A DNA stretch of 64,000 nucleotides from Patescibacteria group bacterium. Lineage in GTDB: Bacteria; Patescibacteriota; Patescibacteriia; Patescibacteriales; JAQTRU01. The stretch spans positions 127,479 through 191,478 of the forward strand of contig JBAZPX010000001.1 of the NCBI GenBank assembly GCA_041645555.1, read 5' to 3'. The notes under the pieces were generated by a model. It was not told the DNA's origin, did not search any database, and saw nothing but the letters and a program-made list of their open reading frames with translations. A program made the position numbers and the translations under genes. Shown here piece after piece: positions 13,822 through 16,740 of the stretch (position 1 is the first letter of the stretch; each line of letters opens with the position of its first letter).

Positions 13822-16629
13822 ATGGGTATTTTAGGAAAAATCTTCGGGGATCCGAATGAAAAAATAGTAAAAAAACTGGAGCCGATTATTAAAGAAATAA
13901 ATGCTTTAGAGCCAAGGTTTGAAAAGATGAGCGATGAGGAGTTGAAGGGAATGACTGCCGAATTTAGGAAAAGACTGGGAGTGAAAATGGACGTTGCTGA
14001 AAAAATAGGATCTCTCCAGGATGACATAAAAAAGAAACTGGATGAAATATTGCCGGAAGCTTTTGCCGTGGTAAGAGAAGCAGGAAAAAGGGTTTTAGGG
14101 CAGAGGCATTATGATGTCCAGCTGGTAGGCGGCATAGTTCTTCATCGCGGCCAGATTGCGGAAATGAGGACCGGAGAAGGCAAAACTTTAGTGGCGACCT
14201 TGCCTCTTTATTTAAACGCTTTAGCCGGCCAGGGCGTGCATCTGGTAACGGTTAATGATTATTTATCCAGAGTGGGCGCGGGCTGGATGGCGCCGGTTTT
14301 CCATCTTTTAGGACTAACGACCGGCGTGATTATCCATGACACTGCGTTCGCTTTCGACCCGGAATTTTCGGATGATTCGCAGTATGATGACCGGTTAAAG
14401 CATTTCCGGAAAATAGCGAGAAAAGAAGCTTACCAATGCGACATAACTTATGGCACGAATAACGAATTTGGCTTTGATTATCTGCGCGATAATATGGTGC
14501 CGTCTTTGGGGCAAATGGTGCAAAGGGGGCTTTATTATACGATTGTTGATGAAATTGATTCTATTTTAATTGATGAGGCGAGAACCCCTTTGATAATTTC
14601 CGCTCCGGCCGAGGAGTCAACCGACAAATATTATAAATTTTCCCAATTGGTGGAGCGCTTAAAAGAAAAAGAAGATTATAACGTGGATGAGAAAATGCGG
14701 GCGGCAACTTTGACCGAAACCGCCATTACCAAAATGGAAAAATGGCTGGGCGTGGAAAATATTTACGTCTCCGGCGGGGTTCGCGATGTCCACCATATTG
14801 AGCAGGCCTTGAAAGCGCGGGTTTTATTTAAAAAGGACCGGGATTACGTCGTGAAGGAAGGCCAGATTATAATCGTTGACGAGTTTACCGGCCGTTTGAT
14901 GTTTGGCCGGCGCTACAGCGAAGGATTGCATCAGGCGATTGAAGCTAAAGAAGGCGTGGAGATCCAGAGGGAATCGCAGACGCTCGCGACCGTCACTTTC
15001 CAGAATTATTTTCGCATGTATAAAAAATTATCCGGTATGACCGGCACAGCCGTCACGGAAGCCGAAGAATTTTCTAAAATCTATAAATTAGAAACCGTGG
15101 TTATTCCCACGAACCAGCCGATGATAAGGAAGGATATGAATGATTTAATTTACCGCACCGAAGAAGGAAAATTCAAAGCTGTGATTGAAGACGTAAAAGA
15201 AAGAAATAAGAAGGGCCAGCCGGTTTTAATCGGGACGATTTCCATTGAGAAAAACGAGCTTTTGGCGGAAATGATGAAAAGGGAAGGGCTTGACCCGCAG
15301 GTTTTAAACGCCAAGAATCATGAAAAAGAAGCGCAATTTATCGCTCAAGCCGGCCGGTTAGGCACGATTACCGTGGCCACTAATATGGCAGGCCGGGGCG
15401 TAGATATAATTTTAGGCGGAAATCCTCCCGATAAGGAAGAACAAAAAAAGGTAATTGAAGCGGGCGGCTTGCACGTGCTTGGCACCGAGCGGCATGAAGC
15501 GAGAAGAATTGACAACCAGCTGCGCGGGCGGTCCGGCCGCCAGGGCGACCCGGGCTCTTCCCAATTTTTTGTTTCGACTGATGATGATTTAATGAGAATT
15601 TTTGGCGGGGACCGGATGAAGGGCTTAATGAAGACTTTGCGCGTGCCGGAAGACATGCCGATTGAAAACCGGATAGTTTCCAAGTCAATTGAATCCGCCC
15701 AGATGAAAGTTGAAGGCAATAACTTTGATATCCGCAAACACCTAGTTGAATATGATGACGTGATAAATAAGCACCGGGAGTCAATTTATCGTAAGAGGAG
15801 AGAAATACTGGAATTAGCGGGAGAGAAGGTGGTGGAAGATAAAGAAGGAGAAAAGGAGGAAAACAGCAGGACTTTGTCTGGCATAATATTTGATATGGTG
15901 GAAAATGAGATTGAGCAGGTAGTAAGTTTTCATACGGCTTCGGAGATTGTCAAAGACTGGAATTTAAACGAAATTTACGAAGTGGCCTCCACTATTTTCC
16001 CGGTAGAAAAAGGATTGAAAAAAGATTTGTCCGCTTTTGCCGAGGATGAGGGCAAATTAAATAAGGCCCGGGCCCGGACAGTGATTATTGAGCATTTAGT
16101 GAAACTGGCAGGAGAGAATTACGAAAAGATGAAAGAGCAGTTCAAGGCCATTGGCGCCGGTTTTAATTTTTCCGAAATTGAAAAAGCGATTTTAATCCGT
16201 TCGATTGATATGTTGTGGATAGAGCACTTGGATGCCATGGATTACATGCGCCGGGGCATAGGACTCCGCGGCTACGGCCAGCACGACCCCTTGGTTGAAT
16301 ATAAAAAAGAAGCTTATCATCTTTTTAACGAACTCAATAGCTTAATCCAGAAAGAAGTGGTTTATTCCGTTTTTAAAGTCGGGGACATGAACCAACTTAA
16401 AGCTCCGAGCCTGGTAGATAGGGCGAAACAGTTCAGCGCCCCGGCTAAAACAATGGACGAGAAAACTTCTTCTTTTTCCGGCTTTAAGCAGGCGGATAAA
16501 GGCAGTAATTCCGGCACCATTGATATGGTTAAGCCAAAACAAAAAAATGCCCAAGGGGAGAAAATCGGCCGCAATGACCCTTGCCCGTGTGGTTCAGGCA
16601 AGAAATACAAGAAGTGTTGCGGAAAGTAA
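13822..16629 (+). CDS. secA: preprotein translocase ATPase SecA
   Basis: Full-length SecA: DEAD motor domains, [10 protein letters not shown], C-terminal zinc tail [15 protein letters not shown]. Confidence 0.95.
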   Translation: [935 protein letters not shown]

Positions 16630-16740
16630 TGCGTAGCGCTAAACAAGAAAATTCCGAGTCTCGCCCCGCCGAAGTCCCACGCTCGGGACGAAGGAGGGTG
16701 CGGGAGTGGGAAGAAATATAAGAAATGCTGTGGGAAATAA
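16630..16740 (+). repeat. GC-rich hairpin element (72 nt) followed by a 39-nt in-frame duplicate of the secA C-terminal zinc-tail coding sequence
   Basis: 16702-16740 re-encodes [12 protein letters not shown] in the secA frame, with 9 synonymous differences from the authentic copy. 16630-16701 contains CCGAAGTCCC-acgctc-GGGACGAAGG. Confidence 0.7.

Follow-up and report, generated by a model that had tools for sequence, protein, structure and literature searches.

Bacterial chromosomes can capture foreign DNA with no dedicated recombinase. Two such routes are described in naturally transformable species, among them Acinetobacter baylyi and Streptococcus pneumoniae: homology-facilitated illegitimate recombination (HFIR) and short-patch double illegitimate recombination (SPDIR). 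The incoming DNA has one homologous anchor, short microhomology that is often GC-rich or extended joins the opposite end, and the resulting patches measure tens to hundreds of nucleotides. Bacteria of the candidate phyla radiation (CPR) cannot be cultivated alone and their routes of gene gain are poorly understood. Here, we analyse a stretch of 64,000 nt (the window) from a 301-kb contig of a metagenome-assembled genome of a Patescibacteria group bacterium, in which the 3′ end of secA is followed in frame by a second, recoded copy of itself. This second copy, first noticed as a single duplication, is one layer of a three-deep stack of gene-end fossils, and the secA 3′ end is a hot spot of repeated insertion that recurs in the clade.

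The locus resembles several described systems. As in HFIR and SPDIR, one side of the foreign DNA is homologous to the recipient, and the other joint may lie at microhomology. With elements that integrate at gene 3′ ends (tRNA and tmRNA islands, accretion of integrative and conjugative elements (ICE) and cis-mobilizable elements (CIME) at fda in streptococci, tycheposon arrays of Prochlorococcus) it shares a replacement 3′ end, a displaced end left as a direct repeat, a pile-up with the newest unit next to the gene and small accessory cargo. Like repetitive extragenic palindromes (REP) and bacterial interspersed mosaic elements (BIME), Rickettsia palindromic elements and Neisseria dRS3, it includes short GC-rich imperfect palindromes, in several copies and at gene borders, some of which are tolerated in frame inside coding ends (as in locus L110, see below). 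As in the template and variable repeats of diversity-generating retroelements (DGR), a gene 3′ end is closely followed by a near-copy of itself, from which a GC-rich hairpin separates it. Differences from HFIR and SPDIR are also apparent: these are known from experiment whereas the secA case is read from natural genomes of uncultured Patescibacteria, the secA joints cluster in the last 24–57 nt of one essential gene with events stacked, and joints share a recurrent hairpin family, a feature not predicted by plain HFIR.

The features of the locus are collected in Table 1. The stop codon of secA occupies positions 16627–16629 and the gene ends with the codons GGT TCA GGC AAG AAA TAC AAG AAG TGT TGC GGA AAG TAA (16591–16629; tail T1). 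The first-pass annotation had reported that the same frame re-encodes this peptide exactly, at an offset of 111 nt and with nine of 12 codons changed synonymously. Our re-reading agrees on frame, peptide, offset and codon changes, the second tail (T2) being GGG AGT GGG AAG AAA TAT AAG AAA TGC TGT GGG AAA TAA (16702–16740), but the repeat is one codon longer than noted since it includes a preceding Cys codon (TGT at 16588, TGC at 16699), giving 13 codons plus stop. T1 and T2 differ at 12 of 42 nt (29%), all silent, T1 using TCA for Ser, where T2 has AGT, as well as TAC and GGC. The GC-rich core CCGAAGTCCC-acgctc-GGGACGAAGG described between the tails is present at 16669–16694. Misassembly, a concern raised together with the observation, is countered by a second public record (L046, an ENA assembly of 56.9 kb) that is 100% identical over 6087 nt including the secA tail region. 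T1 and T2, moreover, share no identical stretch of more than 8 nt, and a double tail created by the assembly is therefore very unlikely. The window SecA, MFA4833336.1 (locus tags WC619_), had no strain-level variants, its protein cluster being a singleton.

Table 1. Features of the secA and U32 peptidase loci, with positions in the window unless a related locus is named
Feature	Position	Strand	Basis
secA, 935 aa, ending in the active zinc tail	13822–16629	+	Pfam SecA_DEAD, SecA_PP_bind, SecA_SW, SEC-C
T1, active tail, 13 residues + TAA	16588–16629	+	sequence read
111-nt segment (T1, stop, spacer, hairpin) parting secA body from T2	16588–16698	+	relatives L001 and L004 without it
Long imperfect palindrome; core family member at 16662–16700 (model strand minus)	16652–16712	.	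covariance model, 51.3 bits
T2, displaced yet intact tail, 13 residues + TAA, tight TAA-T-ATG junction to next open reading frame (ORF)	16699–16740	+	
Horizontally shared block: T2 and 5′ part of 90-aa ORF	16699–16921	+	87% identical to L107 503–725
90-aa ORF with C-terminal hydrophobic stretch, cargo of the middle layer	16742–17014	+	no Pfam family
Palindromic elements TTATACCGC...GCGGTATAA and CTGGATTCCCGCTTTCGCGGGAATGACAG, far end of the middle layer	17058–17131	.	
T3, oldest, decayed tail CAT AAG AAG CGC CAC GGG AAG TAG (HKKRHGK*)	17142–17165	+	position weight matrix (PWM), alignment
AAA_18-type kinase gene, conserved, bounding the variable slot	17187–17705	+	
9-nt tandem repeats	27594–27637; 31391–31425; L047 3161–3203; L101 2368–2400; L103 134–186		
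U32 decoy head 1 (MKIIKSKKPELIAPA), native upstream context; oldest, resident head	27685–27729	+	
Hairpin-family member abutting decoy head 1	27726–27766	+	covariance model, 50.9 bits
U32 decoy head 2 (MANNIKTKLELIAPA)	27797–27841	+	
Hairpin-family member abutting decoy head 2, covarying inner stem	27838–27876	+	53.4 bits
U32 peptidase gene, active head (MRNNTKIKPELIAPAGN...)	27907–29160	+	100% identity to P0001 over whole query

Searches with its SecA assign the window to Patescibacteria, and we compared the locus with ~100 related loci (~665 kb), each followed for 3–4 kb beyond secA. An empty-site comparison was proposed with the original observation; the closest loci, L001 and L004, run CCCGTGC straight into a single tail, followed through GGGAAATAATATG directly by the next gene, which differs between the two. 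The GGGAAATAATATG junction is common to T2, L001, L004, L054, L016, L017, L021 and L107. The origin of T2 is indicated by L107, in which the alignment with the window starts exactly at the TGC of T2, while the secA bodies of the two give no blastn match. The 90-aa ORF has one homologue only in a collection of 5.8 billion proteins, P0125, which in L107 sits directly after a single-tailed secA via the same TAATATG junction. Since similarity begins at T2 while the secA bodies are unalignable, tail and neighbour gene have moved together between lineages, as one piece. Codon usage typical of the clade had suggested T2 as the lineage's own ancestral tail, an argument we found weak since the tail of the distant L107 agrees with that of L001 at 35/42 positions, as many as T2 does; T2 instead came with the 90-aa ORF block. 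T1 matches the tails of the closest relatives at 30–33/42 positions and T2 at 34–36/42.

A separate history of each copy as a functional tail, each in its own lineage, explains the silent-only differences between T1 and T2. If four of the 12 differences had been unconstrained, the peptide would survive with P = 1.6e-3, and with six, P = 5e-5; the pattern cannot come from drift of an unconstrained copy. It had been proposed that the second copy was no fresh duplication and had either diverged under peptide-level constraint or been imported. The first statement holds, all 12 differences being silent and T2 contiguous with a foreign block. Import is favoured by the silent-only differences and by the 87% identical L107 block, and constraint is disfavoured by the decay of older copies.

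An in-place tandem duplication of the terminal 111 nt of secA, with selection retaining the additional copy because it is translated (by TAA read-through or as a separate peptide), would account for the shared frame, the identical peptide, the lack of a stop over 72 nt (16630–16701, or 69 nt if counted to the Cys codon of T2) and a 111-nt period that is a multiple of three, although this open, in-frame state has about one chance in 10 and is not significant alone. We consider it highly improbable, as judged by the similarity, limited to the tail with the other 69 nt dissimilar, by the Ser codons (TCA versus AGT), by the contiguity of T2 with the foreign block and by a second motif that after read-through would hold three of four zinc ligands (GGCGSG instead of CPCGSG). 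No ATG, GTG or TTG start codon occurs in the secA frame across 16630–16701, equivalent cases are out of frame in relatives (L018, offset 82) and older copies decay; on these three points stop-codon read-through, for which a test had been suggested, and a second small ORF were both set aside. Tandem duplication followed by drift was rejected on the 12/12 silent differences, the absence of similarity outside the tail and the contiguity of T2 with the foreign block. Nothing indicates present-day selection on T2 or read-through, and neither is supported, since older tail remnants decay, as do orthologous decoy heads of the U32 gene described below. A DGR was also discarded. Unlike DGR variable repeats, the secA tail differences are not adenine-specific, only 3/12 involving A in T2, and all are silent, leaving the protein unchanged; Pfam scans of window ORFs revealed no reverse transcriptase.

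Beyond the 90-aa ORF and the palindromes, a third tail precedes the AAA_18 gene, so that the locus reads secA body, T1, 69 nt of spacer and hairpin, T2, 90-aa ORF and palindromes, T3, AAA_18 gene. T3 was detected with a PWM of the last 24 nt of the secA tail, scanned over the ~100 loci. Its score (21.9 bits) compares with a reverse-strand maximum of 21.7 bits in 665 kb. Plus-strand matches fell on active tails and on sites downstream of secA only, with none upstream. T3 lies 21 nt before the AAA_18 gene. Orthologous remnants occupy the corresponding site in L047 and L002 and align with T3, as does the active L001 tail; in degenerate form, T3 may begin as early as about 17128. It is the copy farthest from secA and the most decayed, and the older displaced copies (T3, the L047 remnant T3′ and the L002 remnant) have decayed by non-synonymous changes and indels. 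Identity of the secA body to relatives is 83–94% up to T1 and falls only in the last interval of the profile, with no mosaic tract visible upstream of T1. Since there is no drop before T1, the last event would have added only ~111 nt. T1 is most likely the last tail to arrive, following a unified rule in which the anchor lies in the gene and the joint in the resident tail.

Displaced secA tails were found in at least eight other Patescibacteria lineages (L002, L007, L016, L018, L024, L026/L076, L047/L048 and L054), separated from the active tail by inserts of ~45 to 740 nt, some with one small accessory gene. One displaced tail each is present in L007, L016, L024, L026/L076 and L054, the last forming with L004 a filled and empty pair around a 111-aa zinc-ribbon ORF. 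The second tail of L002 lies ~400 nt downstream, past a reverse-strand ORF of 94 aa, and that of L018 follows 58 nt of GC-rich sequence, out of frame at an offset of 82 nt. Three tails occur in L047/L048, whose SecA is the closest (90% identity), with layers that hold an 82-nt spacer containing a hairpin, and a gene for a PBECR3 nuclease; in the oldest remnant, T3′, the junction is in A-rich sequence. Tight TAA-T-ATG junctions are typical of distal (resident) tails while proximal (incoming) tails have longer spacers, as would fit incoming foreign secA fragments. In L016 (4983–5627), the inserted SAM-methyltransferase ORF continues into the displaced tail of secA and terminates at that tail's stop codon (...LKKCCRK*); this accessory gene has recruited a fossil secA end as its own C-terminus.

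Direct repeats of the secA 3′ end flank the inserts (T1/T2/T3 in the window, equivalents in L002, L007, L047 and L054). This arrangement could be produced by site-specific integration and accretion, the secA tail serving as attB for a tyrosine or serine integrase, the cassettes being relatives, devoid of an integrase, of an integrative element whose attP resembles the tail, and the tails being att repeats. Tandem layers with the newest next to the gene, as in tRNA-gene islands and ICE/CIME accretion, and the conservation of the tail DNA across phyla (~80% identity to Salmonella secA over 57 nt) are consistent with this reading. However, we judge it improbable. Remnant lengths by local alignment are about 57 (L002), 50, 43, 41, 30 and 24 nt, and these varying boundaries argue against a site-specific crossover; no fixed crossover position, as expected of an integrase element, was seen. 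A precise crossover at TGC|GGN, suggested by five junctions that seemed to coincide, was abandoned since the remnants of L002 and L054 extend upstream of this point and others begin with the Tyr codon. Motif scans for integrases and recombinases were negative for all ORFs of the 64-kb window and the ~100 loci, and Pfam assigned the cassette and neighbour genes to PBECR3, methyltransferase, PII-like, zinc ribbon, DUF1706, ParB and AAA_18, with no recombinase. In contrast to known 3′-end elements, some secA inserts are only ~45–82 nt long without a gene, and the same geometry occurs at a gene 5′ end (U32), which would need a second att specificity. Nothing on secA as an integration site was found in the literature searched.

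The U32 peptidase gene of the window presents the mirror case. Its 5′ end occurs three times over 27685–27951, with heads MKIIKSKKPELIAPA, MANNIKTKLELIAPA and MRNNTKIKPELIAPA at periods of 112 and 110 nt, and both decoy heads encode M...ELIAPA. The head has a single GC-rich patch, GCGCCGGCC, where the junctions fall, and the hairpins that abut the decoy heads are the reverse complement of the secA hairpin (CCTTCGTCCC...GGGACTTCGG and the stem-covarying CCTTCTCCGCC...GGCGGATTCGG). The terminator and spacer upstream of decoy head 1 match those before the single head of L101, which identifies the distal head as the resident one. U32 relatives overall show one or two heads: L101, L102, L103 and L105 have one and no hairpin, and L104 (72% U32 identity, different upstream gene) has a hairpin copy between a decoy and an active head whose ELLAPA stretches differ silently at all six codons. 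Orthologous displaced heads have decayed with non-synonymous changes and indels. In L108 and L110, in-frame decoys surround short inserts between flanking 24-nt duplications that are 83–88% identical; the L110 insert is the reverse of the family's 3′ half at 12/13 positions and the L108 insert resembles it. In both (L110 801–900, L108 855–990) U32 is annotated with N-terminal extensions holding a decoy PELIA(S/P)AG before the real PELIAPAGN. Hairpin-like translations (PPLLKG, PTPFTKGG) were also seen just before PELIAPAGN in P0048, P0054, P0055, P0060 and P0085.

Taking both loci together, we favour a model in which the secA 3′ end has captured foreign DNA serially, by homology on the gene side and by a microhomology joint at GC-rich hairpin arms on the far side, and judge this rather probable. 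The layers show each incoming piece to be a fragment of the secA locus of another lineage, comprising a functional tail end, stop, downstream spacer and hairpin or small gene, and each insert indeed starts with secA tail sequence, as expected of one-sided homology. The new tail remains attached to the secA body and has pushed the previous one downstream as a remnant of 24–57 nt, which keeps the ribosome-binding and start context of the next gene. T2 looks constrained only as a tail that worked until recently, here or in the donor, while older remnants decay. On the gene side, recombination would proceed by homology within secA; the far side, whose joints are at variable positions in GC-rich or A-rich patches, would be joined illegitimately at short or extended microhomology, in one class between GC-rich hairpin arms of the incoming DNA and the GC-rich CCCGTGCGGGAGCGGG (CPCGSG codons) of the resident tail, in the other at the A-rich AAGAAATATAAGAAA stretch (KKYKK codons), next to AT-rich DNA. 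The remnant could then act as a second homology arm, allowing the arrangement to spread between lineages by ordinary recombination and to stack further. The same process in mirror image would apply at the U32 5′ end. The lower limit of ~24 nt would fit the need to keep the translation start of the next gene, and the upper limit the instability of long direct repeats. The process may be of the HFIR or SPDIR type, as suggested by this comparison; no competence genes were present among the window ORFs scanned with Pfam. Illegitimate capture and restoration of a gene end, as at integrase targets, are known kinds of process; the literature searched held no description of the stacked, hairpin-associated form without integrase.

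The hairpins form a family. The secA hairpin region folds at −42.8 kcal/mol (z = −3.8), and its outer stem pairs the spacer 16652–16664 with the start of T2, after its T (16700–16712), through 10 Watson-Crick pairs and one G-U of 13. The 3′ arm of the hairpin merges into T2; this arm and the T2 start share GTGC, with complementarity to the opposite arm at 10/13 positions, and form a putative microhomology joint. A covariance model built from the three window copies (secA, U32 twice) recovered in the window only those three. Its single match in the ~665 kb of related loci is degenerate and lies at U32 in the L002 genome, and a further copy was found in L104. The five members in all (secA, U32 twice, L100, L104) each lie between a displaced and an active gene end. 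They share two stems and a conserved TTC/TTC internal loop, with compensatory changes at 8/12 pairs and 91% of alignment cells paired, counts that lean towards structure as the alignment was fitted to the model. Rfam 15 gave no match over the whole window at gathering score and only chance-level matches around both loci; the exact hairpin core was absent from the viral contigs searched, and phage records gave only generic SEC-C matches. An integron origin was rejected, as the hairpin (flanks GCCCNCC-TTC...TTC-GGNNGGGC) holds no RYYYAAC/GTTRRRY core sites and no intI was found. The family has the multi-copy, structure-conserving GC-rich palindromes of REP-like sequences and lacks their dispersal in ordinary intergenic DNA, no copy being found outside gene-end junctions in the window and related loci (~730 kb). 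Duplicated and recoded gene ends flank the hairpin here but are not known as flanks of REP/BIME, Rickettsia palindromic or dRS3 elements; no transposase, RAYT-type, HUH or other, was seen near its copies. In serial capture, the GC-rich arms of the hairpin may simply be prone to illegitimate joining with GC-rich patches of secA and U32.

Some of these results weigh against serial capture. The presence of the hairpin at 5/5 such junctions and nowhere else in ~730 kb fits a causal element better than a bystander, and a donor with the hairpin in a plain native intergenic position was not found. Unit length is near-equal at the two loci (111 nt at secA, 110 and 112 nt at U32), as is the spacing from hairpin to gene end (37–39 nt). 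An L107-like donor shares only the tail region with the window secA, a very short anchor unless closer intermediates carried the block. A donor for T1 (tail end ...GGTTCAGGCAAGAAATACAAGAAGTGTTGCGGAAAGTAATGCGTAGCGC), its spacer and the hairpin was not found among the ~100 loci, and it is not proven which of T1 and T2 arrived first.

Alternatively, hairpin and spacer could be an active, non-autonomous mobile element that inserts 24–45 nt from a gene terminus and makes or carries a duplicate terminus, either by duplicating a very long target or by providing a replacement end, with pairing of flank and target as the guide and an enzyme encoded elsewhere. Copies would spread by homologous recombination, turning the resident end into a decoy, and this would explain the silent-only differences. 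The strict position of the five members and their absence elsewhere, the compensated two-stem structure with its TTC/TTC loop, the 110–112 nt unit at two unrelated genes and the outer stem complementary to the adjacent displaced end all speak for such an element, as do the 24-nt duplications around short hairpin-like inserts in L108 and L110 and the many U32 homologues with hairpin-like translations just before PELIAPAGN. It would nevertheless have to accommodate secA inserts of the same geometry with an unrelated hairpin or none (L002, L007, L016, L018, L024, L026, L047, L054), a T2 layer that is clearly a foreign secA piece and not a target duplication, the 29% difference between T1 and T2 and the lack of a transposase or recombinase near any copy; the part of this genome examined is 64 kb. 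We hold this to be unlikely, though a serious contender. Similarly doubtful, and slightly more so, is the wider proposal of an undescribed class of miniature hairpin elements in Patescibacteria that insert a few dozen nucleotides from either end of essential genes and spare the host by supplying a recoded gene end, sites being possibly chosen by base pairing of flank and target and the stacked tails and heads being their footprints. If the hairpin family were the active agent, it would represent a mobile element of a new type, one that replaces the end it disrupts and thereby protects its host gene.

Under serial capture, the layered gene-end fossils would allow successive DNA captures at a single site to be read in order, newest by the gene and oldest farthest from it, apparently without integrases. 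A PWM scan for displaced ends of conserved genes suffices to find such hot spots, date events and trace donors in metagenomes. Caution is also needed in annotation: intact-looking duplicate gene ends are not evidence for read-through or small genes, and gene callers absorb displaced ends, as in a 102-aa call that overlaps T2, the U32 N-terminal extensions and the end of the L016 methyltransferase ORF.

Further observations were made around these loci. The palindrome CTGGATTCCCGCTTTCGCGGGAATGACAG (17103–17131) would translate as LDSRFRGND and follows the pattern ATTCCC-N8-GGGAAT; its part at 17108–17125 fits Neisseria dRS3, which has this pattern. Unrelated loci carry it at 93–96% identity over 28 nt (L034, which is non-CPR, as well as L068 and L026), and 19 nt are matched exactly at the L049 end; it looks like a cross-lineage repeat, as judged by these matches. 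L002 carries at 6338 a tail-like KFKECYGK* at an insertion boundary (PWM 25 bits, above background); a second tail-like match at 7750 is probably the lysine-rich end of the maf gene. Between tRNA_bind and maf, the window has a GC-rich, strongly self-complementary intergenic stretch (18058–18170) with no Rfam match, and the same site in L002 is occupied by glyoxalase-like and nucleoside deoxyribosyltransferase-like genes, preceded by the KFKECYGK* sequence. The 9-nt tandem repeats of Table 1 (GATTCTTAG or GATTTTTAG) lie right after stop codons and before terminator-like hairpins, and the same repeats form the spacer of the newest layer at the L047 secA tail.

Elsewhere in the window, a 59-nt intergenic repeat, TTATCACCGCCTCGGCGGGATCCCGCCTTCAAATATTATAATAAAGTGGCGGGACAAAT, occurs in three copies of 88–98% identity (9204–9262, 11373–11431 and 62060–62118); with its GC palindromes and TATAAT-like box it may serve several genes as a promoter or operator module. 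A subtilase/FG-GAP ORF (55132–57420) contains, at 56563–57327, a 144-nt unit in four diverged copies (68–83% identity; spacing 153, 153 and 315 nt). AT-rich intergenic repeats, AATTTTCAATTTTAAATTTTCAAAC, are found in both orientations at many sites (e.g. 23664, 29160, 46233 and 53661). Nearly all window genes are on the plus strand, and GC skew is strongly positive throughout.

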